Source of the DNA: an uncultured Planctomycetales bacterium
GTDB taxonomy: Bacteria; Omnitrophota; Gorgyraeia; Gygaellales; Profunditerraquicolaceae
NCBI GenBank assembly: GCA_964487475.1
Contig: CAZAPM010000004.1
Coordinates: forward strand, 1 to 37,754
DNA: 37,754 nt
Direction: 5' to 3'
The position numbers and the translations under genes were made by a program. The number at the start of each line of letters is the position of its first letter. Position 1 is the stretch's first letter. Shown one piece after another: positions 2,454 through 30,283 of the stretch. The notes under the pieces are model-generated. The model saw nothing but the letters and a program-made list of their open reading frames with translations. It was not told the DNA's origin and did not search any database.

Positions 2454-3218
2454 TCAGAGAAAACGCCGGACGAGCCGGGCAAAACCGCTGCGGGAACGCG
2501 CGAGCGCCTGCGGCGTCAGCGAAACGAGATAACGGTCCCACCACGTTTCTTCCCAGAGATGGATGCAATACGAGGAGGAAAAATCGGCGGGCTGCGCGCT
2601 CCAGAGCAGCGCCGGCTGCCAGAAGAGAGGGTAAAAGAATGCCCGGGGGCCGAGCACGTGCACCTGCCGGGGAGCGAGCGCCCATAATATCTTAGGCAGG
2701 ATCACCGAATGGAAATCCCAGCGGGTCCGGTCGAAATCCCGGTACTGGCTGCGCCAGCGCCGGATGAATTCGCAGTGCGGCTGCGCCAGGATCACCGCGT
2801 TGCACAATCCGCGCTGTCCCTGCCGGCCCATCACGCACTCGTGCCGCAGCAGCGGGGTGAACGGCTTGAGGCTCACCACGTCCATATCGAGATATATCCC
2901 CCCCTGCCGGGAAAGGATATCCAGCCGCAGCACATCCGCCCGGTGCGCATAATGCACCAGCGGCTTGCCGAATACCGTGCGCGCGCAGCGCACGCGCCGC
3001 GCCTCGAGGTATTTCTTCGCGCACCGCCACCATTTCCCCGACGGCTCGTACGCGTAATGCAGCCGGATCGCCTCGGGACGGTGCACTTCGAATGCCGACT
3101 TGACCGCCAGATAATGCACGAAGGAGAACGGCCTTCCCCCGAAATCCCGGCGCATGCCGAAACAGAAATGGATCACCTTGGGGATCTGCGCCACCGCGTC
3201 AGGTCCTTTCTCATGCAC
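2454..3218 (-). CDS. Glycosyltransferase, GT32/OCH1-like DXD family
   Basis: IPKVIHFCF, ADVLRLDIL..QGGIYLDMDV and LCNAVILA motifs. Confidence 0.85.
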   Translation of the reverse strand: MHEKGPDAVAQIPKVIHFCFGMRRDFGGRPFSFVHYLAVKSAFEVHRPEAIRLHYAYEPSGKWWRCAKKYLEARRVRCARTVFGKPLVHYAHRADVLRLDILSRQGGIYLDMDVVSLKPFTPLLRHECVMGRQGQRGLCNAVILAQPHCEFIRRWRSQYRDFDRTRWDFHSVILPKILWALAPRQVHVLGPRAFFYPLFWQPALLWSAQPADFSSSYCIHLWEETWWDRYLVSLTPQALARSRSGFARLVRRFL

Positions 3219-3859
3219 GAGACCACATCCTCCCCGTGATAGGCGAATCCCGCATAATGCACGATGTGTGCGCGCGCCCTGCGCCGCCAGATCGAAGCTC
3301 CCGGGACCCGCATGGTATTCCAGGAAGCATCCAGCTCCGTCACCGGATACCGGCCGGAGAGGATGCGCGCGTTAAGGAAGGACTGCTCGTACATCCCCAT
3401 GGAGAGCATGCGCTTCGGCAACGCAAAAAGCCGCCGGTGAAGCGACGGGACCACCATCACCCCGGTATTGAAATAGGACCCGTCCCATCCGGAGAACCGG
3501 GGCCGGCGGTACAGATGCAGCGCTTCCCGCAGGGAATCCGCGCGGTCCATCACCCTGCCCTCATTGTACAGGCCCAGCGTATCCGCGGGCACGTGCGAAA
3601 AAATATCCGGGCAGCGCTCCCGCACCAGGATATCCACGTCGAGATACACCAGCCGGTCATACCCTTCCAGGAGCGAGCCGGCCAGGAATTTCTCCCAGTG
3701 CGGAGTGGGAGATCCGCGCAGCAGCGGTTTCGAAAGCACAAAGAACGCGGCGTCGATCCGGCGGGCATACCTGCGCATATACGGCAGGGACACCTTCGCG
3801 ATGCGGACTGCCTCCCTCCCGATCGCCACCGTAAAGACCACCCGCTTTTCCTTGCTCAT
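3173..3859 (-). CDS. Glycosyltransferase, GT8-like
   Basis: YLDVDIL (DXD), YFNTGVMV, EQSFLN, WN..., HIVHYAG. Confidence 0.8.
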   Translation of the reverse strand: MSKEKRVVFTVAIGREAVRIAKVSLPYMRRYARRIDAAFFVLSKPLLRGSPTPHWEKFLAGSLLEGYDRLVYLDVDILVRERCPDIFSHVPADTLGLYNEGRVMDRADSLREALHLYRRPRFSGWDGSYFNTGVMVVPSLHRRLFALPKRMLSMGMYEQSFLNARILSGRYPVTELDASWNTMRVPGASIWRRRARAHIVHYAGFAYHGEDVVSCMRKDLTRWRRSPR

Positions 3860-4845
3860 AACAGCTCCTGCGCCAAAGCCAGGACCCGCGCGTACTCGAA
3901 ATTACCGTCTGGGTCGGGATTATGCCGGAACCGCGCGGGCGCGCAGCGCACCAGCAGACCGGCACGGCAGAATTCCCGCAGGCAGCGGCGCACGCCGCGC
4001 CGATCCCCCAGGGAATCCGCCAGCTGCGTTTCGGTCAGCGCCCGGCGCTTGAGCAGCGCCATCACCCCGCACCCGGTCGCAGTCCCCAGCAGTTTCAAAG
4101 AAGGCATGACATCGCACATCTCCTCCCGGCTTTTCTTCCTGGCGAAAGCATCCCCCTGCTGCTGCCGGATATACTCCTTCAAAAGCATCCGCGCCACGCG
4201 GGAGCCCTCGGGCTGCGCGATAAGACGCAGCCCCTCCTCCTGTACCCAGCCACGGGAGAACAATCCTCCGGCGAGATTCGGCCACGGATACGCGCTTACG
4301 TAATGCCTCCCCCGCGCGATCCTCTCGAACGCCCATCCGTCATGCCGCCCGTGCGCCAGCGCATACCGCAGCTGGTCCAGCAAATGCGAAATACTCCAGA
4401 CCCCCACCGAATTCTGGCTGTAATACTGGAAATCCTGCGGGGTGCGGTAAAAACGCACCCCTCCGATCACCTCGCGTTTCCAGGATACGGGACAATACCC
4501 TCCGGCGATGAATGCGACGTGATCAAGCCGGTGCTCCTGCGCCGTCTCCATGATGTGCGTTACCCGCGCGGGACTGAACGGATACAAAGGGAACTTCTCC
4601 TCCAGCATCACCATCACGGATACCGCCGCGGGATACTGCCGGCGGATCTCTCGAACTCCTTCCCGCAACCTGAACACCCAGCTGGAGGAATTCACCCGCA
4701 CCGTGCGCGGTCCGGAAAGGTGCCTGCCGTGATCCGTGACCCACCACAACGGAGGATGCTGCGGCCAAAGGTTTTCCAGAAGCTCCTGCAGCGCCGGGCA
4801 GAAACGCTCGAAGGAACGGGAGGTCACCGCCAGCACCGGGATCAT
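3856..4845 (-). CDS. Hypothetical protein: GT-A-like/glycan-locus domain with a possible C-terminal winged HTH
   Basis: Start refined to ATG 4845 (AAGGAG RBS, ATGA overlap). SWVFRLREGVREI..VMVMLEEKF..GVWS..W.FE resembles uncharacterised glycan-locus proteins; C-terminal TETQLADSLG..VRRCLREFCRAGLL is HTH-like. Confidence 0.5.
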   Translation of the reverse strand: MIPVLAVTSRSFERFCPALQELLENLWPQHPPLWWVTDHGRHLSGPRTVRVNSSSWVFRLREGVREIRRQYPAAVSVMVMLEEKFPLYPFSPARVTHIMETAQEHRLDHVAFIAGGYCPVSWKREVIGGVRFYRTPQDFQYYSQNSVGVWSISHLLDQLRYALAHGRHDGWAFERIARGRHYVSAYPWPNLAGGLFSRGWVQEEGLRLIAQPEGSRVARMLLKEYIRQQQGDAFARKKSREEMCDVMPSLKLLGTATGCGVMALLKRRALTETQLADSLGDRRGVRRCLREFCRAGLLVRCAPARFRHNPDPDGNFEYARVLALAQELL

Positions 4846-5219
4846 GCGCGCTCCTTGCGGATACTGCCCGCCAGCACGGATGCCAGTTTCACGCGGTCGC
4901 GCCGGATCAGGGGATTCCAGCTCTGCCAGTTGATCACCGACCGTATGGCCCTGGTCGCCGGAGCGCGCACTCCGCTGTTCCAGGCCAGGCTGTACATCGG
5001 AGGTTTTCCGGGGGAGAGGATCTCCCTGACCAATCCCGCCTGCTGCAGGAGAGAAAGATGGCGGCGCATCTGTGCGGGAGCGACCCCCATCACCTGCGCG
5101 AGCACGTCTGAGGTAAGCATCCACCGCTCGAGCACCAGCACGACCCGCACCCGGATGCGATGCGAAAGCGCCCGAAAGATCAATACCGGCTCACGAGGAA
5201 CGGTCATACGCTTAGACAT
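4842..5219 (-). CDS. ArsR/SmtB-like winged-helix protein
   Basis: IFRALSHRIRVRVV...LAQVMGVAPAQMRRHLSLLQQAGLV. Start at 5219 or 5207, coupled to the upstream stop. Confidence 0.75.
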   Translation of the reverse strand: MSKRMTVPREPVLIFRALSHRIRVRVVLVLERWMLTSDVLAQVMGVAPAQMRRHLSLLQQAGLVREILSPGKPPMYSLAWNSGVRAPATRAIRSVINWQSWNPLIRRDRVKLASVLAGSIRKERA

Positions 5220-8200
5220 CCCTGAATAACGGCAGATACTGCCCCTCGATGACCGCATCCCAGGTATACTGCGCCGCGACCCTCCTGCGGCCGGCCGCGC
5301 CCAGCGCAGCGCGGAGGGACGCGGAATCCAGAAGCCGGTTCAGCCTCTCCGCCAGGGCATCCACATCCCCCGGCGGGACCAGGAACCCGGTCTTTCCGTC
5401 GATCACGATATCCTGCAGCCCGCCGCATTTGCTGGCGACCACCGGCTTTCCCGCTGCCATCGCCTCCAGGGCCACGATACCGAAAGGCTCATCCCAGAGG
5501 GAGGGGATCACGCAGATATCCGCATCCCGGCACAACGCCAGCGCCTCCTCCCGGGAGCTCCACCCGGCGTAATCCACAAAAGGAGCGCGCACCTTGCCTA
5601 AGGTAGTCGCGGTAAGCAGGAAATCCTTCCGGCTGCGGTAAAGTTTCGCGCACGCGGCCAGCAGCACCTGCAGGCCCTTCTCCTCTTCGTTGACCCGGCC
5701 GCTGATAAGGATACGGAGCATGGTTTTTTTGCCGGCCGCCGGAGGAACCGCGGGAAAATCCGCCAGGCTGACCCCGGAAGGGATCACGCGCACGTTCCGG
5801 TTGAAAGGGCGCAGCAATTTCGCCAGCTTCCCGTTATACACGATCACCCCGTGCGCCTGGGAGACCGAATCCTTCACCCTGCGGTGAAAGGACGGGGAAA
5901 AACCGTCGCTCAACATGAACTCCTTTGCCCCCACCCCTCCCGCCCCCGGCCCCTGGATGCACGAACGCATACAGGCTAGGCACTCCTGGCGGCGACGGAG
6001 AAAATCATGGGGACAGACCGCATGGTCCCGGAAACGGATCCCGTTCTCGCGCAGACAGACGTTCTCGTACGCATAGAAACGCAGGTATCTGCGGTATCCC
6101 TGCAGCGCGGAGAACACATGGGGTTTGAGGCTCCATCCGTCGCCGATGAAGACGTAATCCGGGTCGAACGCATCGACCGCCTTGCGGATCCGCGCTCCGA
6201 CCAGGGAAGGCAGGAACGTCTCCTGGGTGAAGGATATCTGGTGCACGGGAAACTCCAGCCGGCCGCTCACCTCGCCGCGCACGAAAAGCTTGTCGTAGTA
6301 GGGGACAAAAAGCTCGACCCCGTACCCTCTCCTGGCCAGTCCCGTCGCTACCTCCTTGAGGTCATACCCCGCGCCTCCTCCGGGAGGCCAGCGGAACATC
6401 AGGTCCACGAACGCGATGCGGGCTTTTTCCGCACGCGGACCGGGGACGCGCTCCACGGCTGCAGCCTCCGGTTCCGCCGCCGCGTGTGCCTGTGCGCGCA
6501 ACTGACGAGAAAGCACATGCCGCTGCCATCTGCTTCGGGCAAGCGCCAGGGCCGCTTCCAGGTCACGCCCGCTCATCTCCCTGGTTCGCACGATGGAGCT
6601 CCTGTCCCCGTCATAATCCTTCCAGGATGCCGCGCGCAGCCTGCCTTCCTTGGCCAACTGCGCGTGATACGCCGTTCCGGGAAAAGGGGTAGTGAGGGAG
6701 AACTGCGCCGAATCCGGGTTAAGTTTGATGCAATACTCGATGGTCCTGGCCACGGTATCCTTCGTCTCTCCGGGAAGCCCGATGGTGAAACTCAAATGCA
6801 CCTTGATCCCCAGCTGCGTGCACCAGCGCACCGCTTCTTCGACGCGGCGCAGATCGAGGGATTTTCCGCAGGCATCCACCAGCTCCTGGCATCCGGACTC
6901 GACACCGAACTTGATCGAACGCATCCCCGCAGCCTTCATGGCCGCCAGGACGCTCCGGTTTCCGGCATCCGCCCGCGCCATTGCCGACCAGGGCACGGAT
7001 ATCCCTTCATTCCGCATCGCCCGGCACAGGGCGCGCATCCGGGAAGCGCCGATATTGAACGTGTCGTCGTCGAAATACACGCCGGCAAAACCATATGCTT
7101 CCACCGCCCCGGAGATCTCCCGGGCCACCCGCCGAGGGTCCCGGGAACGGTACTTCCGGCTGCCGTATAACACCTGAGGCCACAGACAGAAAGAACAGCC
7201 GTACGGGCACCCGCGGGAAGCCATGACCTGCAGCGCGGGGGACGGCACTCCCGAACCGGGGTCGTTATAGTTGTACATGGGCAGGGTCGCACGCTCCGGA
7301 TACGGCAGCGCATCGAGGTCAGGCACGCTTCCCCGTCGCGGGGAGGACTTGACCACGCCCAGACTGCGGTAGACGACCCCCTCTACGTTGCGCACGCTGC
7401 GGCCTTCGCGCACACACCGCACCAGACGGGATAAAGACGATTCGTACTCCCCTACCAGCGCAAGATCTATTTCCGGATGAGCCGCCAGGATCTCCCCGGC
7501 CTGGGAGGAAACATGCGGGCCGACCAGCACCACTATCGGCTCCGGGCCGAAGGCCTTAAGCTTGCGCACCCAGGCCATGTCCTCTTCGAAGGAAGGCGCG
7601 GAGGTCTCCAGCACCACCATCCGGGGCTGGGCCCCCCTGACCCGCTCCAGGCACTCCTCACCGGTCAACCCCTCGGCAACGGCATCGATGAGATTCGCCG
7701 CCACCCCCTGCCGCAACAGCACTGCGGTCGCATACGCCATGAAGAAAGGAAAGGGGACATATCCCGGCACCCGCTGGTCTCCCCGCTCCATGGTAAAAGG
7801 CCACCGGGAACCCGCGCGCACTCCGATCCTTTTTTTCCCTCCCCAGGGAGGATTGACCAGCACCACCCGGAATCCCTGCGCATACAGCCGCTCCCGGTCC
7901 GACTCCTCTTTGATCCTGGACAAAGACACTCTGACCATCAGCCAATATTCCCGGGGCATGCGCAACCAGCGTTCCCATCCCCGGCCCGCCTTTTCCACGA
8001 ATTTCACCGGCGCCTGCGGCAAAAGCGCCCGCCAACGCTCGCACAAACCGTTACTCGCGGCGTCACTGCGGAAAGGAAGGATGCCCCAGGCTTTGGCCGT
8101 GGCCGCCGCCTCCTTGCCCAGCCGCTCCACGCAGGGATGCACCGCGGCAAAGAGATGCTCGCACACTTCCTGCGGCACCTCGGACTTGACCAGCGCGCTC

Positions 8201-9363
8201 TTGATCTTCGCGAGCACTCCCAATGCCGCCTGGGAGACCACGGACGCGGGAAAATTGGAGTACTCGCGCATGAAAGAAATGTCCTCCAGCAGCCCGCGCA
8301 TGGCCAGCGCGACGTCGACCCCCAGCAGATGATACCGCTTATCCCGGTCGTTGCGGCGGCGCAGCACCTCGAAACGCACGAGATCGTGGCAGACCTTATG
8401 GTCCAGCCTGTCGAACATGACGTATCTTCCGGACATCTCCCCGCGCGGGGTACGGAACCACCGCCAATACGTATTGCCCAGGCTCTCCAGGGTATCGGTG
8501 CGCAGATGACGGGCCACGGCCCTGGGCTCATAGACGGTGTGATACCCGAGCAGGCGCACCTTCATGCTCATATCGGTATCCTCGTGGTTGACCCGGAAAC
8601 GTTCGTGGTATCCTCCGGCATCGATGAGCGCCCGGCGCCGGAACACGGAATTGCATCCGAACACGGAAGGAGGATCGACCTTGCGTGCCTCGCCCCGCTC
8701 CTGCGCCATGTGCACCTGTCTCCACTGATCGACCGCGGTCAGGGTCAGGGATTCGATAAGCCTTCCCCCCGCGGCCGCGACATCCTTTGCGAGGACCTCC
8801 CGCATGAGATGCTCCAGCCAGAACATGTCCGGCACCACATCCGCATCCACGCTGGCGATAAAATCCCCCTGCGCCCGGGCAAGTGCGGTGTTGCGTGCCG
8901 CGCTTAAACCCTGATTACGGGGATGCCGCACCACCTTGACCGGGAAACGCCCGGCGAGCCGTTCGCTTCCGTCCGTCGAGGCGTCATCGATCACCAGTAT
9001 CTCTTTGACGGGATAGCTTTGCCGGCAGACCCCCTCCAGGCAACGGATGAGGTACTGCCGCGAATTATACGAAGGCACGTAAAAAGTCACCGCGTGCCGC
9101 CGGGCCAAAGGATGCGCCGCCGCCTCGCGCCGCGCGTTCCGGACCTGCGGCTGGCGCGGATCGAGCGCAAGAGAACGGGCATACCACCGGGCGGCGCTGT
9201 AATAAAGCCCCTGCGCATCCAGGGAAGCGGCGAGAAGGTTGCAGTGCGCCGGCTCCAGCCCGCGTAACGCGTCGGCACGCAGATAGTACGCACAGGCATA
9301 TGCATGCTCCCTGCGCGCGCGCATGGATTCGGCAACGTTCAGATAGTACTCCCGTGTATTCAT
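5212..9363 (-). CDS. Multidomain TPR / GT2 / B12-binding radical SAM / GT4 fusion (1383 aa)
   Basis: N-terminal TPR-like helices; GT2 motifs (VPSYNS, VIDDASTD, GLSAARN, VDADV, EDTD); B12-binding region (VLVNPP, LVGPH, GEYE); SRGCPYGCSFC radical SAM motif with FDDDTF and GVESG; C-terminal GT4 (PSLWDEPFGIVALEAMAAG). Confidence 0.9.
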   Translation of the reverse strand: MNTREYYLNVAESMRARREHAYACAYYLRADALRGLEPAHCNLLAASLDAQGLYYSAARWYARSLALDPRQPQVRNARREAAAHPLARRHAVTFYVPSYNSRQYLIRCLEGVCRQSYPVKEILVIDDASTDGSERLAGRFPVKVVRHPRNQGLSAARNTALARAQGDFIASVDADVVPDMFWLEHLMREVLAKDVAAAGGRLIESLTLTAVDQWRQVHMAQERGEARKVDPPSVFGCNSVFRRRALIDAGGYHERFRVNHEDTDMSMKVRLLGYHTVYEPRAVARHLRTDTLESLGNTYWRWFRTPRGEMSGRYVMFDRLDHKVCHDLVRFEVLRRRNDRDKRYHLLGVDVALAMRGLLEDISFMREYSNFPASVVSQAALGVLAKIKSALVKSEVPQEVCEHLFAAVHPCVERLGKEAAATAKAWGILPFRSDAASNGLCERWRALLPQAPVKFVEKAGRGWERWLRMPREYWLMVRVSLSRIKEESDRERLYAQGFRVVLVNPPWGGKKRIGVRAGSRWPFTMERGDQRVPGYVPFPFFMAYATAVLLRQGVAANLIDAVAEGLTGEECLERVRGAQPRMVVLETSAPSFEEDMAWVRKLKAFGPEPIVVLVGPHVSSQAGEILAAHPEIDLALVGEYESSLSRLVRCVREGRSVRNVEGVVYRSLGVVKSSPRRGSVPDLDALPYPERATLPMYNYNDPGSGVPSPALQVMASRGCPYGCSFCLWPQVLYGSRKYRSRDPRRVAREISGAVEAYGFAGVYFDDDTFNIGASRMRALCRAMRNEGISVPWSAMARADAGNRSVLAAMKAAGMRSIKFGVESGCQELVDACGKSLDLRRVEEAVRWCTQLGIKVHLSFTIGLPGETKDTVARTIEYCIKLNPDSAQFSLTTPFPGTAYHAQLAKEGRLRAASWKDYDGDRSSIVRTREMSGRDLEAALALARSRWQRHVLSRQLRAQAHAAAEPEAAAVERVPGPRAEKARIAFVDLMFRWPPGGGAGYDLKEVATGLARRGYGVELFVPYYDKLFVRGEVSGRLEFPVHQISFTQETFLPSLVGARIRKAVDAFDPDYVFIGDGWSLKPHVFSALQGYRRYLRFYAYENVCLRENGIRFRDHAVCPHDFLRRRQECLACMRSCIQGPGAGGVGAKEFMLSDGFSPSFHRRVKDSVSQAHGVIVYNGKLAKLLRPFNRNVRVIPSGVSLADFPAVPPAAGKKTMLRILISGRVNEEEKGLQVLLAACAKLYRSRKDFLLTATTLGKVRAPFVDYAGWSSREEALALCRDADICVIPSLWDEPFGIVALEAMAAGKPVVASKCGGLQDIVIDGKTGFLVPPGDVDALAERLNRLLDSASLRAALGAAGRRRVAAQYTWDAVIEGQYLPLFRDV

Positions 9364-11102
9364 GGCAACAGTACTCCTTGAGAGGCAAACAGGTCTGCGA
9401 ACTCCGCGTTCGACCGCAACAGCTCCCGGCCTTCTCCCTCGACCAGGCCCCGGGATCCGAAAAAGAATACCCGCTGCGCCGCCACCACGGTAGAAAGGCG
9501 GTGGGAAACGGTGATCACGGTCATGTGCGGATACTGCGCGGCGATGTTGCGCATAATGGTCTCCTCGCTGTACGCATCCATGGACGCCATGGCTTCATCG
9601 AGCACCAGCACCGAGGGTCGCTTCACCAGGGCCCTGGCCAGGGCCACGCGCTGTTTCTGGCCGTCGGAAAGCTTGCAGGCGTCCTCTCCGATGACGGTAT
9701 CATACCCCTTGGGCAACGCCGCGGCGAATTCCTCCACCAGGCATATCCGGGCCGCTTCCTCGATATCCGCGCCCGGCTGCCCGTATGCGATATTGCGCGC
9801 CAGCGTGTCATTCCACAGGAACGGCTCACGGAAAGATACCGCGACCCGGGACACCAATTCCCTGCGGGAAATTTCCGGCAAGGGGACCCCGCCCAGGGAC
9901 AACGCCCCTTTCCAGGGCTCGTGCAGCTTAAGCAACAGCAACACCAGCGTCGTCTTTCCGCACCCCGATCTTCCGGCAAAAGCCACCCGGCTTCCCGCAG
10001 GGATATCCAGGCACACTCCGGAAAGCACGGGGGTCAGACTGCGGTACCCGAACCAGACATCCTGAACGCGCATCCCCAGGGGCTGCGCGGACGGCAGCCG
10101 GCAGCGCAACGCGGAAACCCGCTCCTCGACCGGGAACTGCTGCCAGATCTGCAAGAGCTGCCGGTACGAAGTCCGCGCATAAAGGAACGATTCGAACGTA
10201 CGGGTGAACTCGAGCTGTATCTCCATGATCTGCCCGAGATACAAGGTGAGCGCGCCCAACGTACCGATGCTCGCCTCCCCCCGCACCACCTGCAGGCCCG
10301 CCCAAAGGGTGAACACTCCGGTGAGCACTCTCACCAGAAAGCTATTGACGAACTCCCCTCCCAGATCGACGCGCGATACCTTGATGCTGGTGCGGATGAA
10401 TGCGATGCGCTTGGCCAGGTACGTCCTGGTCTCGTAGATCTCCGCCGCGAACGCCTTGACCAGCTTGATGTGCAGAAAGAACTCCGCCATGCGGCGGAAC
10501 ACCGTCTCGCAATCCCGGTAAAGGCCGTCCCAGAGCAGCATACGGCGGCGGCGGAAGCGGGAATTGAGCAAGAACAGCACCGGACCGACCAACAACGCTC
10601 CCAACGCAAGCTTCCACTGCAAAAAACAAAGCATGGTCATGATCGCCAAGGCCCGCAGCACCTGCACCCCCATGGCCGTGACCTTCATCCCCAGGAAATC
10701 CGCCACCTGGTCCACGTCATGGTTGATGCGGTAAAGATGCTCCCCCTGGCTCTTGTCGTCGAAATAGGACAACGGCAGGGACGCGAGCCGGGAGAACGTG
10801 CGCCGGGAGATGACAAAACCGAGACGCAATTTCAGAGTGCTCTCGAAATACCCCTTGATCCCCGTCGCGGCTCCGCTGACGATGAACGTCGCGGCCCCGA
10901 TCATGGTATAGACCACGAAAGAGCCGACATTATGGTTGAGGAACGAATGGTCTATCACCAGCTTGGCCAGCAGCGGGTTCAGGAATCCCGACAGCAGGGC
11001 CACAAGGGACGCGCAGGAGATCAGCACGATCTCCTTACCGTACCCGCGCAAGAGCCTTACCATCGCCAACCCCTCTTTATACGCTTGCGGTGGAACAGGC
11101 AC
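9360..11102 (-). CDS. ABC exporter, fused permease + ATPase (no C39 peptidase domain)
   Basis: TM domain then Walker A GRSGCGKTT, signature LSDGQKQR, Walker B VLVLDEA, H-loop VSHRL. Start uncertain (11108/11102/11063). Confidence 0.9.
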   Translation of the reverse strand: MPVPPQAYKEGLAMVRLLRGYGKEIVLISCASLVALLSGFLNPLLAKLVIDHSFLNHNVGSFVVYTMIGAATFIVSGAATGIKGYFESTLKLRLGFVISRRTFSRLASLPLSYFDDKSQGEHLYRINHDVDQVADFLGMKVTAMGVQVLRALAIMTMLCFLQWKLALGALLVGPVLFLLNSRFRRRRMLLWDGLYRDCETVFRRMAEFFLHIKLVKAFAAEIYETRTYLAKRIAFIRTSIKVSRVDLGGEFVNSFLVRVLTGVFTLWAGLQVVRGEASIGTLGALTLYLGQIMEIQLEFTRTFESFLYARTSYRQLLQIWQQFPVEERVSALRCRLPSAQPLGMRVQDVWFGYRSLTPVLSGVCLDIPAGSRVAFAGRSGCGKTTLVLLLLKLHEPWKGALSLGGVPLPEISRRELVSRVAVSFREPFLWNDTLARNIAYGQPGADIEEAARICLVEEFAAALPKGYDTVIGEDACKLSDGQKQRVALARALVKRPSVLVLDEAMASMDAYSEETIMRNIAAQYPHMTVITVSHRLSTVVAAQRVFFFGSRGLVEGEGRELLRSNAEFADLFASQGVLLP

Positions 11103-14505: not shown

Positions 14506-15371
14506 ACCGGAGGAGCGGACGCATACACCAGCCGGTCCACTCCCATCCGCGCAATACGTGACTCGTCGACCGAATCGTTGCGGTAAAAATGGGTATTCCC
14601 CCTCAACAGCAGGGGCAGAGGGAACGACGCATGCTCCAGGGAGAACACGTAACGGGCGCACTGCTGACTGCAGGGCCGGCGTTTCCGCATCGTTGATTGC
14701 GGCCCGTCGCACCCCGCGCTGGGACAGTAGAAGGTCGTGCTGACATAGACGAACGGCACATACAACGATGCCGCGCGCACCCCCTGTCCCAGGCTCACCT
14801 TAACCCCGTGCAACGGATTGTCCAGCTCGATGCGGCGCACCCCCATCCCGGAAAGGCACTTCTGCAGGACGGGGACCGACCCGGCGTTGCTGCCCCGGTA
14901 ATACTCATCCATGGCCGGCGGCAGCTTCACCTGCATGACCAGGACGCGGTCGGAGTGCTCCGGGTCTGCGTGACGCATCATGGCCGCGGGAGCGCGCTTA
15001 AGGACCCGGGCGAGCGTAGGACAGCGTTTCTGTTTGACCAGCAGCCTTCCCAAGACCGGCTCCAGGGAAGGAAAACGCTCATGCAGCAGCCGCAGCACGC
15101 CCCAGTCATTAACCACCACTTCGCAGGCACCGGCCTGCCCGGAGAGCGCACGGCAAAGCTCCTCCACCCGGTCCAACCCCTCATCGGTCACATAGGGAGT
15201 CACCAACGTGAAGCGCATATCCGCATCATGCGTCCGGCGCACCAGCGCCTCCAGCGCAGGCAACGACGGGATCCGCCGCTCGCAGAATTCGCTGCCAAAA
15301 TACACCCGGTCATACCCTTCGGGCAACGGCCGGTCAAGGGCTTCCTGAGAAAGGAAGAGCGCTTTTTCCAT
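14502..15371 (-). CDS. U32-family Fe-S protein, UbiV-like subunit
   Basis: DRVYFGSEFCERR (cf. UbiV D.IYLGE.VC.KR), EVVVNDWG, RRIELD, C-terminal YC...C....C...C. Start 15371 (TGATG overlap). Confidence 0.7.
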   Translation of the reverse strand: MEKALFLSQEALDRPLPEGYDRVYFGSEFCERRIPSLPALEALVRRTHDADMRFTLVTPYVTDEGLDRVEELCRALSGQAGACEVVVNDWGVLRLLHERFPSLEPVLGRLLVKQKRCPTLARVLKRAPAAMMRHADPEHSDRVLVMQVKLPPAMDEYYRGSNAGSVPVLQKCLSGMGVRRIELDNPLHGVKVSLGQGVRAASLYVPFVYVSTTFYCPSAGCDGPQSTMRKRRPCSQQCARYVFSLEHASFPLPLLLRGNTHFYRNDSVDESRIARMGVDRLVYASAPPV

Positions 15372-16399
15372 CAAAACCCCCTCACCTGGGGATAATAACA
15401 ATTGTTGCCCCGGCAGGGACCGGGGTATCCGAACGCTTTCCGGTAGTTATCTTCGACCGCCTGGAAATATCCCTCGCGGGTCAGGTGCGCGTCCTGCAAC
15501 AGAAGGCTCGACTGCTTGATGAACCGGGTATCCAAGAGACGCTTCCCGGCATCCAGCTGCCTGCCCACGATCTTCACGGAAGCCACTCCCGCCCGCGCAA
15601 GGTCGTAGAGCGCACAGGCTCCGCACTCCGTGCCGTCGCTCAAGTGCTTGAACATCGTCGGCCTTACGGCAGATCCCGGCAGGGATCCGCCCGTCACCGC
15701 ATCGTTGACTCCGACCTGGTATTGCAGCGCGCAGGCATCACCGTGAACCTGCAGGTCATAGCTGGCGAAGACGTCCAACCGGCAGGAATCCTTCTGGCGC
15801 CGGGGGGGCATATGCCTGCCGGCATACGCATGCATGAACGTGCAGAAACCGTCGATATGTACGCATAACGTATTGAGCACGAACGCTTCGAACTCTACGG
15901 AGGGGAATGCGTTGATCATCCGGCCCATCCCGCCGATATCGGTCTGCCGGTCGAACACGATCCTGGCTGCGCCCAGATCGGAAAAGAACGCGCAGGCCTG
16001 GGAATTGAACACCGTCCCGCCGGTCGAGACGTGCAGACGCGGCACCTGAGACTGTTCCCGCAGCGTGAGCAGCAGGCCCAGATCCGCGACGATATAGGCA
16101 TCGATGGGCAAACGGCTCAACCGGCGGAGGATACGCGCCAGCAGAGGATACTGCTCCCGCACGTACAATCCGTTGACCGCCAGCGCGACCGGAACGCCTC
16201 TGCGGTGCGCCAGGTCCAATGCCCGGCCCAGCTCCTTGAGGTCGGTAAAATTACTCGCCCCTCCCTTTCTCTCGAACTCCAGACTGGTGTACTCTTTCTC
16301 CCAGGCCGGATCAAGATAGCCGCAATACAGCTCGTCCGCGCCCGCATCGATGAGCGGGACGACCTCCTGCGCGGACTTAAAGGGCACGTTGATCTTCAT
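15371..16399 (-). CDS. U32-family Fe-S protein, UbiU/RlhA/TrhP-like subunit
   Basis: IDAGADELYCG, IVADLG, HVST, LCVHIDGFC, GDAC, CGAC, GVASVKIVGRQ (cf. KIEGR). GAGGA RBS before ATG 16399. Confidence 0.85.
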   Translation of the reverse strand: MKINVPFKSAQEVVPLIDAGADELYCGYLDPAWEKEYTSLEFERKGGASNFTDLKELGRALDLAHRRGVPVALAVNGLYVREQYPLLARILRRLSRLPIDAYIVADLGLLLTLREQSQVPRLHVSTGGTVFNSQACAFFSDLGAARIVFDRQTDIGGMGRMINAFPSVEFEAFVLNTLCVHIDGFCTFMHAYAGRHMPPRRQKDSCRLDVFASYDLQVHGDACALQYQVGVNDAVTGGSLPGSAVRPTMFKHLSDGTECGACALYDLARAGVASVKIVGRQLDAGKRLLDTRFIKQSSLLLQDAHLTREGYFQAVEDNYRKAFGYPGPCRGNNCYYPQVRGF

Positions 16400-16406
16400 C
16401 GGGTCC

Positions 16407-17390
16407 TCAAAACAATGCCGGGAGCTTTTCCCATCCCGGAAGGCGTTTGACCACATGCACCAGGCAGCCGCCCGAACATCCGCCGCTGCGCATATGCGTG
16501 CACGAAAAACACTTGTCCAGCGCTCCCAGCCGTTTCAGATGCGCGGAGCGCCTCAGGAAATACGCATCCAGTTCCTGTTCGTCGCGAAAATCCTTCAAAG
16601 AGAGCCCCGCCGAGGTCTTGGCGGCCATCCCGTAACAGCGGTATACCCGCAGGTCCGGGGAGACTTCCACGGGAGGAAAACAGTTGGTCTCGGGAACGAA
16701 CCCTACGTTCTCCTTCAACAACCGCAGCTGCGGACGGGTGAACGCGCAACGGATGAAGCCGTAATCCGAGAACCAGGTGATGCCCCTGGCCCTGCTCTCC
16801 TTGGAAAAAAGCACCATCCGGCGCACTGCCCGGGCATGGTCTGCGAGAGGGATGAATTCGTTCGCTCCCTCCAGGGAAGGACAGGAGATCGCCCAATTGA
16901 TCGTACGCCTCAAACGGTACCGGTCTATCAGGTCATACAGGAACGCCGGGTCAAAATCCAACCGGGAGATCCGGAAGCTCAGCACCGCCTTTTCCCCCAG
17001 GGATCCCAGCGCAAAGAACAGGCGCTCCCTGTCCGCCGCGGAATACTCCCGGGGATGGCGGATATTCACCAGCACGTCGACAAGGGAATCCCTGCCCGAA
17101 AGGAATTTTGCGGTCGAGGATCCCATCACCCCGTTGGAGAAGAGCGCGATACGGAATCCGTGCGCTTCGACCGTGCGGTAGATCTTCTCGAAACGGGGAT
17201 GCAGTGTCGGTTCTCCTCCGATCATACGGAAGGTGTCCTGCCGGGACGCTTTCAGGAATGCGATGGCGGCGCGCAGATTACGCGCGGAGATCGCCAGCGC
17301 GGAAGGCCGCTTCTTCGCCAGGCGCATCGCATCCTTGGCAAAACAATAGGGACATCTCAGGTTGCAGTAATACGTCAAGGCGAAGTTCAT
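16407..17390 (-). CDS. Radical SAM protein #3 with SPASM/twitch-like domain (divergent from #1/#2/#4)
   Basis: TYYCNLRCPYCF, IGGEPT; C-terminal C-x14-C...CFSC-x7-CSGGC. Start refined to ATG 17390. Confidence 0.88.
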   Translation of the reverse strand: MNFALTYYCNLRCPYCFAKDAMRLAKKRPSALAISARNLRAAIAFLKASRQDTFRMIGGEPTLHPRFEKIYRTVEAHGFRIALFSNGVMGSSTAKFLSGRDSLVDVLVNIRHPREYSAADRERLFFALGSLGEKAVLSFRISRLDFDPAFLYDLIDRYRLRRTINWAISCPSLEGANEFIPLADHARAVRRMVLFSKESRARGITWFSDYGFIRCAFTRPQLRLLKENVGFVPETNCFPPVEVSPDLRVYRCYGMAAKTSAGLSLKDFRDEQELDAYFLRRSAHLKRLGALDKCFSCTHMRSGGCSGGCLVHVVKRLPGWEKLPALF

Positions 17391-17397
17391 CGGCTTC

Positions 17398-18438
17398 CTA
17401 ACGTTCCCCGGAACGGACTGACTCGGCAAATTGCCTGCTGCGCGGGTCGCACGCCGAAAGGTCCCGGGAGAAGAGCCATCCTCTGGCCGGGCACCACGTA
17501 CAATAAGGCCTCAGCCGGCACCCCGCGCAATCCCCTGCGCCATCCCGCTGTATCCTGCGGCGCAATTTCTCTTCCATAGACCTCCACGCGCGCGCAAAAG
17601 AGGTCCCGCCCAGCGCGATGCGCGGATACTCCAAAAGCACACACGGCTTCAGCGCTCCGTCCGGAGTGATGGCGCACTGTGCACGCCCCGCTCCGCAGGG
17701 GAAACGCACCCGCGAAGGGACCGGCTCCTGAGCGCGCACCTTACGGGGGACTTTCCCGGATGCACCCGTCTCGCCGCATCCCGCGGATCCCGTCGCGACC
17801 GCCGCATACGCAAACGGCCCCTCATCCCCGTCCAGCCTCGGCTGCAGCATGTCATCGAAACGGCACTCGGCACCGTGCTCCCTGGCGAAACGGGCGATCT
17901 GCGCACGCTCCCGCGCGTTCTCCCGCAGCACGCAACACTTGAACCCCATCGGCACACGCCGCGTGCGCAACAGAGACACCGCCCGCATCACCCGCGCGAA
18001 CGCACCGCGCGTCCCGGTGATCCGGTCGAACGGCCTCTCGCGCAAAGAGGGGATGGTGATATCCACCCGCTGTACCCCCGCAGCGGCCAGCCTGTCCGCG
18101 CAAGGCGCATCGATCAGCGACGCATTGGTATACACCTGCACCGTAAACCCCCGGCGGCTCGCATACGCCAAAAGAGGGAAAAAACCGGGCCGCAACAGCG
18201 GCTCCCCTCCGGTGAACCCCAGCATCAGCGCGCCGGCATCCGCTAATTCGTCAAGCAGCGCCCTCATCCGGGATAAGGGGACTTCTTTTATGCTGCGGTA
18301 CGAACGCGGCACGTAACAATGGCCGCAGGAAAAATTGCACCGGTACGTCAGCTCGCACATGACCCGCAACGGGATGCGTTTCTCCGCGGCTTCCCGGCGG
18401 CGGGCGGCGAGATACTCCCGCAGCGCTATGGCGCGCAT
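17398..18438 (-). CDS. Radical SAM/SPASM peptide maturase #2
   Basis: ELTYRCNFSCGHCY, FTGGEP; SPASM CGAG..C.ITPDG..PC...CAGC-x5-CTWC. Start refined to ATG 18438. Confidence 0.9.
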   Translation of the reverse strand: MRAIALREYLAARRREAAEKRIPLRVMCELTYRCNFSCGHCYVPRSYRSIKEVPLSRMRALLDELADAGALMLGFTGGEPLLRPGFFPLLAYASRRGFTVQVYTNASLIDAPCADRLAAAGVQRVDITIPSLRERPFDRITGTRGAFARVMRAVSLLRTRRVPMGFKCCVLRENARERAQIARFAREHGAECRFDDMLQPRLDGDEGPFAYAAVATGSAGCGETGASGKVPRKVRAQEPVPSRVRFPCGAGRAQCAITPDGALKPCVLLEYPRIALGGTSFARAWRSMEEKLRRRIQRDGAGDCAGCRLRPYCTWCPARGWLFSRDLSACDPRSRQFAESVRSGER

Positions 18439-19496
18439 GCGTACGCGCCCTGCGCTGCAGCCATCTGACAATAATATTCCACTGCCGACTCGTCATCCCC
18501 CGTCTCCAGCGCCGCTCGCGACGGACACCAGAAACATTCGTAACGCCGGGCACAATCACGGCAGAGACTCTCCCCCCTGAAACGCTCCCGGGAGACTTCC
18601 CGGATCACCTCGAGGTACCTGGAAAGCGGCGCGCGGTCGACATGGAACGCATGCGCCCGGGAGAACTGGCAGAACTTGACAAAACCGAACGGGTCGATGA
18701 CACACTGCTGCTGCCAGCTGTTGCACGCGTATTTCGCCTCCCGCGCCTGCGCCCCTCCCTGCGGGACACACACCCGCGGCATTCGCAGGTCCGCCTCCAT
18801 CTCCTTATCCTCGCGCACCATCTCCTGCAGCTGCGCGGGGGTCACGCGATGCGCGCACGGTTCAAGGCCGCCATCGAGACGGGGCACCACCACATAATCG
18901 TATTTGAAACGGTGCAGGCCGTTGCCCGGCCGGCCGAATAATTTCTCCGCAGACCTCTTGATCGCCGCGATCTCATGACGGTTCTCCTTAAGACACACCG
19001 CTTTCACGATCGTAGGGACCCCTCTGGACTTTAACCGGGAAAGGCCGGCATGCGCGCTCGCGCACGCGCCAGCGACGCCGGTCACCGCGGCATAGGTTTT
19101 TTCCGAAATGCCGTAGAGAGAGGCCTCGACGCACACCGGAGGAGAAGCGCCAAGGGCGCGCGCCACGGGTTCATCCACCAGCGCCGCATTGGTGAACACC
19201 GTGACCAGCAGTCCTTTGCGCTTCGCGTACCGGTACAATGCCAGAAAATCGCGGCGCAGCAGGGGCTCTCCTCCGCTGAACGTCACTCCCAGGCAGCCCA
19301 TACCGACCAGCATGTCCAGGACGCGTTTCCATTGCGAAGTCGAAAGTTCGTCGGAGACGTTTCCCGCGCCGCGGCAATAACAATGCACGCAGGAAAAATT
19401 ACACCGGTAGGTCAATTCAATATGACAATATGCGGGGAAAGGATTGCGCCGGAAAAGCGACCTCCGGGCTCGGCAACCCAAGGTAGTATTTTTCAC
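18426..19496 (-). CDS. Radical SAM/SPASM peptide maturase #1
   Basis: ELTYRCNFSCVHCY, FSGGEP; 7-Cys SPASM C-x17-C...CRDC-x5-CFWC-x18-C. GTG 19496 chosen to avoid overlap with the precursor (start uncertain). Confidence 0.9.
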   Translation of the reverse strand: MKNTTLGCRARRSLFRRNPFPAYCHIELTYRCNFSCVHCYCRGAGNVSDELSTSQWKRVLDMLVGMGCLGVTFSGGEPLLRRDFLALYRYAKRKGLLVTVFTNAALVDEPVARALGASPPVCVEASLYGISEKTYAAVTGVAGACASAHAGLSRLKSRGVPTIVKAVCLKENRHEIAAIKRSAEKLFGRPGNGLHRFKYDYVVVPRLDGGLEPCAHRVTPAQLQEMVREDKEMEADLRMPRVCVPQGGAQAREAKYACNSWQQQCVIDPFGFVKFCQFSRAHAFHVDRAPLSRYLEVIREVSRERFRGESLCRDCARRYECFWCPSRAALETGDDESAVEYYCQMAAAQGAYACAP

Positions 19497-19533
19497 GACC
19501 GGAAGAAACAGGGCAAAGGACCTAAAGGAACTC

Positions 19534-19743
19534 TTAAGAAGAGGCGGAAAAACTCGCCCACGGGCCAAACCCGCTTACCGTGGATTTGGAGAATGCGGTC
19601 TGACAATATGAGGTAAAGGTATTTCCGGTCCCTGCACCGCCATACCTGCTCACCGTGCTGCACTGACACGCCAACACCGCTTGTTCGGGGTTAAGCTTGA
19701 TCCTGGTGATCTCCGGCTTGAACTTCGACTTTTTCTTCATCAC
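19534..19743 (-). CDS. Putative RiPP precursor peptide (69 aa)
   Basis: MMKKKSKFKPEITRIKLNPEQAVLA-CQCSTVSRYGGAGTGNTFTSYCQTAFSKSTVSGFGPWASFSASS. Lies between PqqD and rSAM #1; GAGGGAG RBS; start overlaps the PqqD stop (GTGATG); charged leader and Ser/Thr/Gly/Cys/aromatic core. Confidence 0.85.
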   Translation of the reverse strand: MMKKKSKFKPEITRIKLNPEQAVLACQCSTVSRYGGAGTGNTFTSYCQTAFSKSTVSGFGPWASFSASS

Positions 19744-20120
19744 GCTCTCCCTCTTCGGCTGTTTTTTTTGCTGACGGGAATGTTCCTGTCCCTGGATGCC
19801 GCCTTAGCCTTAGCCTTAGCCTTGGCCTTAGCCTTGGCCGGCGCCAGTGCCTTGATCTGATGCAGCTCCCGGACCAGCTCTTCCATCAACGCGATCGCCT
19901 TGGTCTCGGTCACTTCGAATTCCCCGGTCACCAGGGTGACGATCTCACCCATGGTCCTTTTTCCGTTTATCAGCTCCCAAACCCGGGCAGCGGAAGCGTT
20001 CAACGAGTATATGGAATTGATATCTTCTGTGGATTTCAGGATAGGCAGGAGGATTATCTCTTCATCGATCCGCCGGGTCACCATATTGGGATTTTTAGCC
20101 AGCACTAACTTAGTGTCCAT
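19740..20120 (-). CDS. Stand-alone PqqD-family RiPP recognition element with basic C-terminal tail
   Basis: VTRRIDEEIILLP...IYSLNASAARVWELINGKRTMGEIV...EFEV is a typical PqqD pattern; strong GAGGAGG RBS. Confidence 0.92.
   Translation of the reverse strand: MDTKLVLAKNPNMVTRRIDEEIILLPILKSTEDINSIYSLNASAARVWELINGKRTMGEIVTLVTGEFEVTETKAIALMEELVRELHQIKALAPAKAKAKAKAKAKAASRDRNIPVSKKNSRRGRA
19801..19836. repeat. In-frame hexamer tandem repeat (GCCTTR)x6 encoding (KA)6
   Basis: gcctta gcctta gcctta gccttg gcctta gccttg. Confidence 0.9.
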
Positions 20121-20146
20121 GAAGCAACCTCCTCATAATTTTTTTT

Positions 20147-20175
20147 ATTATAGCAATAGAACCCGGTTCACGCAA
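20147..20175 (-). promoter_or_regulatory. sigma70-type promoter for the PqqD-precursor-maturase operon
   Basis: TTGCGT-N17-TATAAT with extended -10 TG; followed by an A-tract and GAGGAGG. Confidence 0.75.
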
Positions 20176-20180
20176 GATGT

Positions 20181-20600
20181 TTATGGCGTTACGCGGGGCC
20201 GTCCGGCCCTCTTCAAGGCCGCCTTGCCCCTCCTGGCCCAATAACGCAGCCGTGCTGCCAGAAGCGCCGCTGCGGGCATCCCCAGGACGAAGACCTTCCC
20301 GCCCCGGGAAACCGCGGCGACCGTCCCGAGGATATCTGACGGCCGGACTTCGGCATCGAAATGCAGACTGTTATCTCCCCGTACCCGGTAGATGCTTCGA
20401 CCTTCGCGCACGACGATACGATGGACTCGGTGACACACCAAAGTCCCCGCAGGCTGCGTCCGGTACAGGATCACATCGCCTTTACGGGCCCTGTCCGAGC
20501 CCCGGCATTCTACCAGCAGCGTATCACCGGGCCGGATGAGCGGTTCCATGCTATTGCCCGTCGCACGGTGCCATGATAATCCGTTATGCCGCGTTTCCAC
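20181..20600 (-). CDS. Soluble S24/S26-family peptidase (Ser-His type)
   Basis: GNSMEPLIRPGD, GDVILY, VCHRV, RGDN..FD; no N-terminal TM. GTG 20600 has a GGAGG RBS. Confidence 0.85.
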   Translation of the reverse strand: METRHNGLSWHRATGNSMEPLIRPGDTLLVECRGSDRARKGDVILYRTQPAGTLVCHRVHRIVVREGRSIYRVRGDNSLHFDAEVRPSDILGTVAAVSRGGKVFVLGMPAAALLAARLRYWARRGKAALKRAGRPRVTP

Positions 20601-21666
20601 CCCTGCCCCTCCATTTTTCCCCGGCCAAACCTGCCGCATCCCGGGCCCGGCGCCGGAACGCCAAACTGCTTGCGGCATAATACCAGGCCATAAAATGAAG
20701 CCGCCCCAGACGCGATCCTCGGTCGGTCCCCGACCACAGGCGCTGCGGATGCAGCCACGGCCCGAGCGCCGTTCGCCTGGCCCAGGAAGGACGCGGCACC
20801 TGGGCGGAAAGGTCCTGCGCGGCGGCGCATCGGAAAAGGCGCGCCGCCGAGATCAACGCAAAATAAGGCTGATAGCCTCCGTGCCGGCCGCACCACTCCC
20901 GCACCTGATCCCGGCGCAACGAACCCTGCCGGGAATGCAACAGTTGGGCCAGATCGAAAAAATAACGGGTTTCCAACGGCTCTGTCTCGCTTATCGCCAC
21001 CAGCATCAGATACCACGCCAGGTCCTCGTCGCTCGGCCAACGCACGGCAGTATCGTGAACGGAGATCTGCCGGCTGCGCTCCCAGAAAAGCCCTTCCTCG
21101 CACGACACCGAGGCGCTGCGCAACCCGGCATGCACTTCCACCATCATCCCTTTCTCCGGAGCGACGTCCTTGAGGGCGCATACCGCCTGCTGCGAACCCC
21201 TGCCTCCGGGGTAAGACACGTCATATCCGTTGCGGCGCATGATCTCGCATGCGAAGGAAAAATCCTCTGGCCGGACCAACACATCGCTATCCACCGGAGC
21301 CCGGCGCATCGCGCAATCGCCGTACAAATACCAGGACAAGAGCGCCCCCTTCAAAGGGATGACCTCCATCCCCTGCTGCGCGAATTCCCGCACCAGGGCC
21401 AGGATCCGTTGCAATGCGCGCTCCGCTGCGAGCGCATTGAAGATGACCTGTTCCTTGAGACGGTCCCGGGCTTCCCGGGAGACGGACTCGACACCGCAGG
21501 ATCTCATCTGCGCGTACGCTACAGAAAATAGCCCGGAGCGCAGCGCCAGGTCCACGAACTCTTCCGATTCGCGGCCGGAAAGACGGGGAACGGAGAAGGA
21601 CGATACGGGAGAGGCGGAAAAACAGGATTGCAGCAGCCGCTGCAAAAGAAGGCTCGAGGCTTTCAT
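20584..21666 (-). CDS. Nucleotidyltransferase family protein (NTP_transf_5-like)
   Basis: IPLKGALL...YG....R...DSDVLV and VEVH motifs. Start refined to ATG 21666. Confidence 0.85.
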   Translation of the reverse strand: MKASSLLLQRLLQSCFSASPVSSFSVPRLSGRESEEFVDLALRSGLFSVAYAQMRSCGVESVSREARDRLKEQVIFNALAAERALQRILALVREFAQQGMEVIPLKGALLSWYLYGDCAMRRAPVDSDVLVRPEDFSFACEIMRRNGYDVSYPGGRGSQQAVCALKDVAPEKGMMVEVHAGLRSASVSCEEGLFWERSRQISVHDTAVRWPSDEDLAWYLMLVAISETEPLETRYFFDLAQLLHSRQGSLRRDQVREWCGRHGGYQPYFALISAARLFRCAAAQDLSAQVPRPSWARRTALGPWLHPQRLWSGTDRGSRLGRLHFMAWYYAASSLAFRRRARDAAGLAGEKWRGRGGNAA

Positions 21667-30183: not shown

Positions 30184-30283
30184 NNNNNNNNNNNNNNNNN
30201 NNNNNNNNNNNNNNNNNNNNNNNNNNNNNNNNNNNNNNNNNNNNNNNNNNNNNNNNNNNNNNNNNNNNNNNNNNNNNNNNNNN
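30184..30283. other. Assembly gap (100 N)
   Basis: Run of exactly 100 N; true length unknown. Confidence 0.99.

Follow-up and report, generated by a model that had tools for sequence, protein, structure and literature searches.

The available part of the report on linear polyphosphorylated peptides (LPP; LppA/B/K/S/N/D; Popov et al. 2026, PMC13381572) describes that LppK phosphorylates Ser and that LppS cuts the leader with the help of a recognition element (RRE) of the pathways for peptides that are ribosomally synthesised and modified after translation (RiPPs). In lasso peptide clusters, according to the accessible text of PMC8498205, the kinases act on the Ser at the C-terminus, and placing a hexose on the phosphate requires a nucleotidyltransferase (NTase). 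UbiU-UbiV, TrhP and RlhA are U32 Fe-S proteins for O2-independent, prephenate-dependent hydroxylation, and the substrates given in the accessible part of PMC10990095 are quinones and RNA. Here we describe a gene cluster in a stretch of 37,754 nt of an uncultured bacterium, probably of the Omnitrophota (contig CAZAPM010000004.1 of assembly GCA_964487475.1; this whole stretch is called the window below), where 18 co-oriented genes, including that of a short peptide, lie on the minus strand between wza and wzc (Table 1). We consider it probable that 13 of them, from the NTase gene to the ABC exporter gene, form a peptide-maturation cassette inside the wza-wzc locus, the product of which would be cross-linked via Cys, phosphorylated at its last Ser, glycosylated and exported, and that the last five genes serve the polysaccharide. 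This reading is built on gene order, intact catalytic motifs, the precursor family and the co-occurrence of the core genes, from which the chemistry is deduced. Judged by its sequences, the cassette resembles LPP with added radical S-adenosylmethionine (rSAM) chemistry and appears to be neither LPP itself nor a lasso, SynChlorMet or catalogued sactipeptide system.

The precursor peptide family

The first-pass annotation, which had been made from the letters of the window alone, was right in placing a short precursor beside pqqD, but the peptide starts at the ATG at 19740 and has 68 residues, not 69. Its leader extends to about residue 24, and its core carries Cys25, Cys27 and Cys46 and ends with Ser68. 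The precursor profile retrieved 1,283 relatives out of 3,249 candidate proteins and matched 39 of the 401 genomes of the phylum, with a single match in the window's own genome. By title, 32 of 39 precursor loci are from Candidatus Omnitrophota, Omnitrophica or Gygaella, three from Elusimicrobia, two from Planctomycetales, one from Clostridia and one is unclassified. The leader of the family reads F-x-P-x-I-T-R-I-K-L-N-P-E-Q-A-V-L, the end of which (I-K-L-N-P-E-Q-A-V-L) is common to the relatives, and its F-x-P-x-I is a variant of the [Y/W]xxPx[L/V/I] motif given for lasso and LPP leaders in the available text of PMC13381572; some relatives carry W-x-x-P instead. After the leader comes x-C-x-C (or x-C-C), with the third Cys usually 17–24 residues further; all 38 aligned peptides have Cys25 and Cys46, and the rest of the core is hypervariable. 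Among the 120 relatives listed, the last residue is always Ser (108) or Thr (12), where the background is 25%; since the profile that ranked these 120 contains the tail, the terminal residue was counted again on the peptides found in the loci, where it is Ser or Thr in 107/117, some of the exceptions being cut or broken copies. Moreover, a small residue stands at V-L-[A/S/T] in 102 of the 120 listed, and in two loci PqqD is fused in frame to the precursor (L063:9612-10139 and L064:9889-10422; L plus a number denotes a mapped relative locus). Thus a short ribosomal precursor with a conserved leader and a variable core is linked to an RRE and maturases, as in RiPPs, and the sequence evidence indicates that the 68-aa peptide is a genuine precursor of a conserved family.

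The precursors matched no Pfam or NCBIfam family above cut-off; the StsA model gave a weak match in 2 of 38 (18.8 against a cut-off of 42), and the named proteins among the 120 relatives listed are 'hypothetical', one mislabel excepted. A description of the family was not found in the literature within reach, most subscription papers lying outside it, nor in the accessible parts of PMC6423787 and PMC9902471. The profile misses some members, because a divergent precursor ending in Ser turned up in L188 (5362-5553, minus strand), in a cassette with PqqD, kinase, rSAM, B12-rSAM and ABC genes; among 12 loci with U32 genes and no motif match, no convincing divergent precursor was seen. In addition, one Omnitrophota genome has its CC-type precursors, over 25 in number, dispersed across 13 or more contigs (L021, L026-L029, L031-L034 and L036-L040), often in tandem and mostly without an adjoining maturase, which looks like a combinatorial precursor library.

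The core genes of the cassette

In total 79 precursor loci were mapped, each spanning only about 10 kb on either side of the peptide, and 70 were left after removal of eight duplicates and one locus with a peptide cut at the contig end. When the 18 loci without a core gene and eight loci under 12 kb were set aside, 44 cassettes could be counted, the related loci among which are not independent. The kinase is encoded in 43 of them, PqqD in 39, the NTase in 26 and the S26 peptidase in 25; rSAM 1, 2 and 4 occur in 38/44 each and all three together in 31/44, where the count of rSAM 2 is an upper bound because its label also catches generic SPASM proteins. An MsbA-type ABC transporter was found in 21 cassettes and any ABC transporter in 30. 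Wza, Wzc, Wzy, WecA or WecG is encoded in 19/44 cassette loci, and three other cassettes are placed between wza and wzc as in the window. Other genes are rarer, namely the U32 pair (8/44), a GT4 glycosyltransferase (GT) gene of the window type (2/44) or of a related type (5/44) and rSAM 3 (2/44), while the giant fusion, ArsR-like, hypothetical, GT8 and GT32 genes at the distal end occur in 0/44. The RiPP cassette that had been proposed from the combination of short peptide, PqqD and rSAM/SPASM proteins was thus borne out by a conserved precursor with a recurring core, and the comparison of neighbourhoods, suggested at that time as a check, found the peptide together with PqqD and the rSAM genes in the relative loci.

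PqqD is the only PF05402 match in the window's own genome. Its tail in the window (19740-19830, minus strand) is an Ala-Lys repeat with a basic end, a feature without counterpart in the aligned relatives. In the 60-nt gap ahead of pqqD there are a promoter-like extended -10 site and a strong ribosome-binding site; this candidate promoter suggests that the RRE and the precursor may be expressed separately. A UPF0489-TPR protein (L011:8224-9702 and relatives), which is not encoded in the window, occurs in 13/44 cassettes, usually directly upstream of pqqD.

Comparison with described peptide systems

As far as the available text of PMC13381572 goes, the cassette has in common with LPP a stand-alone RRE, a SipW-type peptidase with a Ser-His-Asp triad, an HprK-like kinase, an NTP transferase, and an exporter that is MsbA-like, so that the gene set by which LPP is recognised (SpI-like peptidase, discrete RRE, HprK-like kinase, NTP transferase, MsbA-like transporter) is complete here; the lack of a lasso cyclase, the conserved leader with a variable core and the location at capsular polysaccharide genes are shared as well. 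The main difference is that the window family has a Cys core and three conserved rSAM/SPASM proteins, whereas LPP is described as linear and without a ring-forming core enzyme, and the main text of that report nowhere uses the words 'radical', 'SPASM' or 'U32'. Furthermore, the LPP leader motif YxxPxVLxHQxIxFETxxS is absent from the alignment of the window family, the conserved Ser/Thr is terminal in contrast to the core Ser3 that is polyphosphorylated in LPP, and the phylum is different.

With the paeninodin and pseudomycoidin lasso clusters the cassette shares, on the accessible text of PMC8498205, an HPr-kinase homologue for the C-terminal Ser, a nucleotidyltransferase and a stand-alone RRE, but Pfam and NCBIfam models detected no lasso cyclase (asparagine synthetase-like) and no B2 protease among the 22 proteins of the locus, which has rSAM/SPASM proteins instead. 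The SynChlorMet cassette (TIGR04248, 04249, 04250 and 04251), to which the first-pass annotation had pointed, also combines PqqD, an HPrK-like protein and several rSAM/SPASM proteins; weak matches to all four models were obtained, all of them far under cut-off (ScmC 16/125, ScmD 19.6/100, ScmE at most 76/400, ScmF at most 80/400). The likeness is therefore distant, and the window type differs by its three or four rSAMs and by the addition of a peptidase, an NTase, an exporter and a U32 pair. LPP, to which the first-pass annotation had not pointed, is the closer characterised relative. A Cys core with rSAM/SPASM maturases is likewise found in sactipeptides and ranthipeptides (models NF045558 and NF045574), but no curated precursor or maturase model was reached, and the stand-alone RRE, kinase, NTase and S26 peptidase are additional. 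The claim that the cluster fits no characterised RiPP class thus stands for the NCBIfam models and the literature compared. In this cassette the recently described LPP chassis is combined with three conserved radical-SAM enzymes; the family comprises at least 1,283 precursor clusters and occurs in about one tenth of the sampled genomes of an almost uncultured phylum.

Catalytic state of the enzymes and proposed maturation pathway

In the alignments rSAM 1, 2 and 4 each keep CxxxCxxC and seven conserved SPASM Cys, the His, Walker A and Asp of the kinase are intact and invariant in 50/50 sequences, and the Ser-His-Asp triad of the peptidase is invariant in 13/13. The kinase gave no Pfam match; its AlphaFold2 model (pLDDT 92.8) matches the folds of PEPCK (E 3e-8) and HPrK/P (E 2e-5), at low TM-scores (0.3–0.5). 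A sequence search against solved structures gave nothing meaningful for the kinase or for U32 protein A. The NTase is divergent, with 22–28% identity to its relatives. In a SPASM domain with seven Cys an iron site stays open, as it does in enzymes that form thioethers, and the conserved Cys of the peptides together with such domains are compatible with a thioether from Cys S to an alpha, beta or gamma carbon.

In the proposed pathway, PqqD very probably binds the leader at its F7-x-P9-x-I11 motif. The three core rSAM/SPASM enzymes would then form thioether bridges from Cys25, Cys27 and Cys46, an assignment to which we give a slight preference, and the kinase is likely to phosphorylate Ser68, as lasso kinases do on the terminal Ser. 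With some hesitation we propose that the NTase and the cassette GT4 add a sugar, probably onto the Ser68 phosphate as in pseudomycoidin. More tentatively, the U32 pair, perhaps with rSAM 3, might hydroxylate the core without O2 and with the help of prephenate; of the possible targets, aromatic residues seem the likeliest. S26 peptidases follow a small-residue rule at the cut site, and it is likely that the one encoded here removes the leader, probably after Val22-Leu23-Ala24, and that the ABC transporter exports the product, which probably has its role on the cell surface or in the matrix, together with the polysaccharide. That the kinase, the NTase, the U32 pair and one GT4 decorate the peptide, as had been supposed at first sight, is plausible.

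A bolder form of this pathway can be imagined, in which three rSAMs cyclise the Cys core, the UbiU/UbiV-like pair hydroxylates the peptide without oxygen, and a phospho-sugar linker, assembled by the kinase, NTase and GT4 on the last Ser, ties the peptide to the capsule exported via Wza and Wzc, so that the hypervariable core would be a peptide label on the Omnitrophota cell surface and the whole an undescribed RiPP class; as a complete scheme we hold it to be improbable. The window copy is compact: it has a single precursor and a single RRE, its catalytic motifs are all intact and the optional U32 pair is included. It offers a direct test of whether U32 proteins hydroxylate peptides, which if true would be the first peptide substrate of U32 enzymes. 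It also bears on the role of the NTP_transf_5 enzymes and on capsule linkage in LPP and paeninodin clusters.

Evidence against the pathway and alternative explanations

Several observations weigh against the proposed pathway, in whole or in part. Core genes are not seen near the precursor in 18 of the 70 loci, of which 13 come from the single precursor-scattering genome and the rest mostly from short contigs. Cys counts and rSAM counts do not follow each other from locus to locus, and a rule of one rSAM per Cys was rejected on this ground. For the terminal phosphate, LppK modifies the internal Ser3 and not the last residue, and deletion of lppN brought no change in the heterologous host, according to the available text of PMC13381572. 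The LPP authors suggest there that LppN needs a partner outside the core, and the cassette-linked GT4 is a candidate for such a partner.

A point of the same kind concerns the bridges, since Tyr, Trp or Phe follows CxC in 105 of the 120 relatives listed, where the window peptide has Ser. For this reason an aromatic cross-link is the main alternative to thioethers. It is conceivable that the products of the rSAMs are C-C links, aromatic cross-links or epimerised residues, the conserved Cys serving to bind metal or to form disulfides; the rSAMs reached the cut-off of no sactipeptide or ranthipeptide model (StsB 62–76 against 625), which is in line with such chemistry. On the contrary, Cys are the only invariant residues of the core, the open iron site expected for seven-Cys SPASM domains is like that of thioether-forming enzymes, and all three rSAMs are kept in the window in spite of the missing aromatic residue, so we regard this alternative as rather unlikely and keep thioether bridges in the proposed pathway.

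The role of the U32 pair is the least certain of these steps. U32 A is the sole PF01136 match of the genome (98 bits, cut-off 22.4), and its best NCBIfam matches are UbiU and TrhP, both below cut-off (76.6 against 440 and 48.2 against 534). U32 B matched no Pfam or NCBIfam model; four Cys are conserved in 31–33 of 33 relatives, the Cys sets are kept in both proteins, and from its Cys pattern and its position we take U32 B to be UbiV-like. An adjoining long/short U32 pair with conserved Cys sets is also what the accessible part of PMC10990095 gives for UbiU-UbiV. In contrast to that pair, the present one lacks a ubiquinone pathway context and sits inside a peptide cassette. These best matches, together with one UbiA-family gene elsewhere in the genome, could point to a housekeeping ubiquinone or tRNA hydroxylase; yet the scores are far under the cut-offs, the U32 A query matches only 22/401 genomes, no UbiD match was found in the 94.6% complete genome, and no UbiT adjoins the pair (one weak SCP2 match lies in a 377-aa frame elsewhere), which makes a housekeeping function extremely improbable. 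In favour of the prephenate-dependent step proposed above, the genome encodes a chorismate mutase.

It is also possible, though we consider it doubtful, that the peptide core is processed as proposed while the substrate of the U32 pair and rSAM 3 is a sugar, a lipid or another envelope molecule and their genes merely accompany the cassette. Against a role on the peptide, 13 of the 21 other genomes with a U32 A match have no precursor match, many U32 pairs are placed in precursor-free loci with B12-rSAM, PMT-type and GT genes, and distant rSAM 3 relatives lie in precursor-free loci in 4/7 other genomes; the presence of the pair in just 8/44 cassettes and the known substrates of U32 enzymes, quinones and RNA in the accessible part of PMC10990095, point the same way. 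Conversely, eight of these 21 genomes have a precursor match, compared with 30 of the 379 genomes without a U32 match, and the three best U32 A matches in 400 other genomes (53%, 47% and 36%) lie 8–10 kb from a precursor. The two window proteins fall into clades of four (support 99) and five (support 98), all rows of which are precursor-linked, in quick and FastTree trees without bootstrap, half of whose U32 rows were collected for lying near precursors, which inflates the clades. The U32 and rSAM 3 genes lie between the precursor-linked rSAM and kinase genes, and precursors from loci with U32 genes show a small excess in length and in aromatic content (0.116 versus 0.087; 11 versus 15 loci, p ~0.04, with related loci not independent). 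No description of U32 enzymes in RiPP pathways was found in the literature within reach, most subscription papers being outside it. On balance we keep the hydroxylation of the peptide as the tentative step given above.

rSAM 3 has a 44% ortholog in cassette L058, adjoining a U32 pair of the same clade. It matched 7/380 other genomes, in which the three best matches are in cassettes and the other four in precursor-free loci; two of these three were part of the query alignment, and the third is L188 with its divergent precursor. Members of the rSAM 3 family occur in the YcaO and B12-rSAM clusters L112, L113 and L116, and distant relatives adjoin U32 pairs in L116 (YcaO, B12-rSAM) and L117 (GNAT and AMP-binding enzymes); the joint presence of rSAM 3 and a U32 pair in L116 speaks against the co-travelling explanation. 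The precursor-free loci L082-L095, L100 and L189-L192, and L102 and L104 of the window's own genome, are large and contain B12-rSAM, rSAM/SPASM, PMT-type and GT2 genes and often U32 pairs, and in L085 six U32 A-type genes lie in one locus, five of them in tandem; the large loci with B12-rSAM, PMT and GT2 genes give the impression of an as yet unstudied system for envelope tailoring in the phylum.

The standalone GT4 has a GT-B fold with an intact EX7E motif, and its only ortholog in 400 other genomes is inside a cassette; one is also present in L020. Its fold searches covered residues 1-357. The C-terminal domain beyond begins with strand-strand-strand-helix in the AlphaFold2 model, and an atlas match to MftB (0.81) is a lead only, hhalign to PqqD being negative; the extra domain may be RRE-like. 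The U32 pair, rSAM 3 and the standalone GT4 are thus optional, yet their closest relatives are in the same type of cassette.

Distal genes and the polysaccharide locus

Five rSAM and five GT domains are physically present in the cluster according to Pfam, as had been noted from the sequence, but the view that all of them serve one precursor did not hold. Because the five distal genes are found in 0/44 cassettes and the B12-rSAM family of the giant gene lies away from precursors, four rSAMs and one GT go with the peptide. In 72 other genomes the B12-rSAM domain was matched 77 times, without a precursor match closer than 20 kb in any case; 11 of the 72 genomes have a precursor match, which shares the contig in only two cases, 24 and 53 kb away. 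The GT2 and B12-rSAM relatives of this gene in its own genome are in glycan-type loci without PqqD or precursor, the best GT2 relative (47%) belonging to a glycan locus with an ABC-2 exporter. No Pfam match was obtained for the 'TPR' at the beginning of the giant gene or for the hypothetical protein (3856-4845); for the latter there are weak GT2-like and helix-turn-helix (HTH) leads. The ArsR-like, hypothetical, GT8 and GT32 genes were set apart by their absence from the 44 cassettes and by position; of the five distal genes, the reverse test in the genomes covered the giant gene.

It remains against this division that the genes from the ABC exporter to GT32 all overlap by 4–8 nt, which couples translation of the distal five to that of the ABC gene, so a strain-specific role on the peptide is conceivable. 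If all 18 genes acted on one peptide, a methylated and multiply glycosylated product would result. A different B12-rSAM family adjoins 8/44 cassettes, and B12-rSAM tailoring therefore exists in this system. Given the absence of the five genes from the cassettes, the genomic distribution of the giant gene's B12-rSAM subfamily, its own-genome relatives in glycan loci and the position of wzc directly after the cluster, action of all 18 genes on the peptide is very unlikely, and the five distal genes most likely serve the polysaccharide.

Gene order, host genome and assembly

The genes listed in the first-pass annotation are all present, in the order and on the strand given there; it had counted 17, whereas there are 18 with the peptide. 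Their co-orientation and overlaps were borne out, the internal gaps being -26 to +60 nt and 12/17 of them overlaps with the chosen starts. Pfam matches above cut-off across the cluster are NTP_transf_5, Peptidase_S24, PqqD, five Radical_SAM, Peptidase_U32, two GT4, GT2, B12-binding, ABC, HTH_20, GT8 and Gly_transf_sug.

Table 1. Features of the wza-wzc locus in the window, in the direction of transcription
Feature	Position	Strand	Basis
Wza-like polysaccharide export protein (flank)	21701..22573	-	Pfam Poly_export and SLBB
NTP_transf_5 nucleotidyltransferase, 360 aa	20584..21666	-	Pfam 115.9 bits, cut-off 31.2; family in 26/44 cassettes
S26/SipW-type leader peptidase, 139 aa	20181..20600	-	PF00717; TIGR02228 50.1, cut-off 51.85; 25/44 cassettes
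Candidate internal promoter, extended -10 TGnTATAAT, weak -35	20147..20175	-	Seen directly, upstream of pqqD and precursor; not in scan list
Stand-alone PqqD/RRE with Ala-Lys tail	19740..20120	-	Pfam PqqD; 39/44 cassettes
Precursor peptide, 68 aa	19534..19740	-	Relatives in 39 loci; alignment; 1,283 relatives
rSAM/SPASM 1 (core)	18426..19496	-	CxxxCxxC and 7 conserved SPASM Cys; 38/44
rSAM/SPASM 2 (core)	17398..18438	-	Pfam, conserved Cys; 38/44 (upper bound)
rSAM 3 (optional, distinct family)	16407..17390	-	44% ortholog in cassette L058; 2/44
U32 protein A, UbiU-like, Cys motif intact	15371..16399	-	PF01136
U32 protein B, presumably UbiV-like by Cys pattern and position	14502..15371	-	Four conserved Cys; tree
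HPrK/PEPCK-fold kinase (core)	13549..14505	-	Motifs intact; fold model; 43/44
GT4 (GT-B) with extra C-terminal domain, cassette-linked	12119..13552	-	EX7E motif; fold; ortholog in cassette
rSAM/SPASM 4 (core)	11077..12144	-	Conserved Cys; 38/44
MsbA-type ABC exporter without peptidase domain	9360..11063	-	Pfam; 21/44, any ABC type 30/44
GT2/B12-rSAM/GT4 fusion, 1383 aa, likely polysaccharide tailoring	5212..9363	-	Pfam; 0/44 cassettes
ArsR-like HTH protein, not cassette-linked	4842..5219	-	Pfam; 0/44
Hypothetical, 329 aa, possibly GT-A-like with C-terminal HTH, not cassette-linked	3856..4845	-	Weak leads; 0/44
GT8, likely polysaccharide synthesis	3173..3859	-	Pfam; 0/44
GT32-type DXD glycosyltransferase, likely polysaccharide synthesis	2454..3176	-	Pfam; 0/44
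Wzc-like chain-length/tyrosine kinase (flank)	519..2378	-	TIGR01007 and TIGR01005

A promoter and terminator scan gave counts at chance level. The host genome has a size of 1.87 Mb, and a recent horizontal gain of the cassette was rejected, as the GC content at third codon positions of its open reading frames (0.67–0.81) is inconspicuous against the genome median of 0.76. The stretch was recovered in contigs from biogas-fermenter, wastewater and sludge samples of three studies, with 30/30 bins covered in three runs and 28/30 in a fourth; the public-run contigs lie over it without indels or joints, and no single one spans it completely. A run of 100 N, a scaffold gap, is located at 30184-30283 of the window, beyond the cluster.

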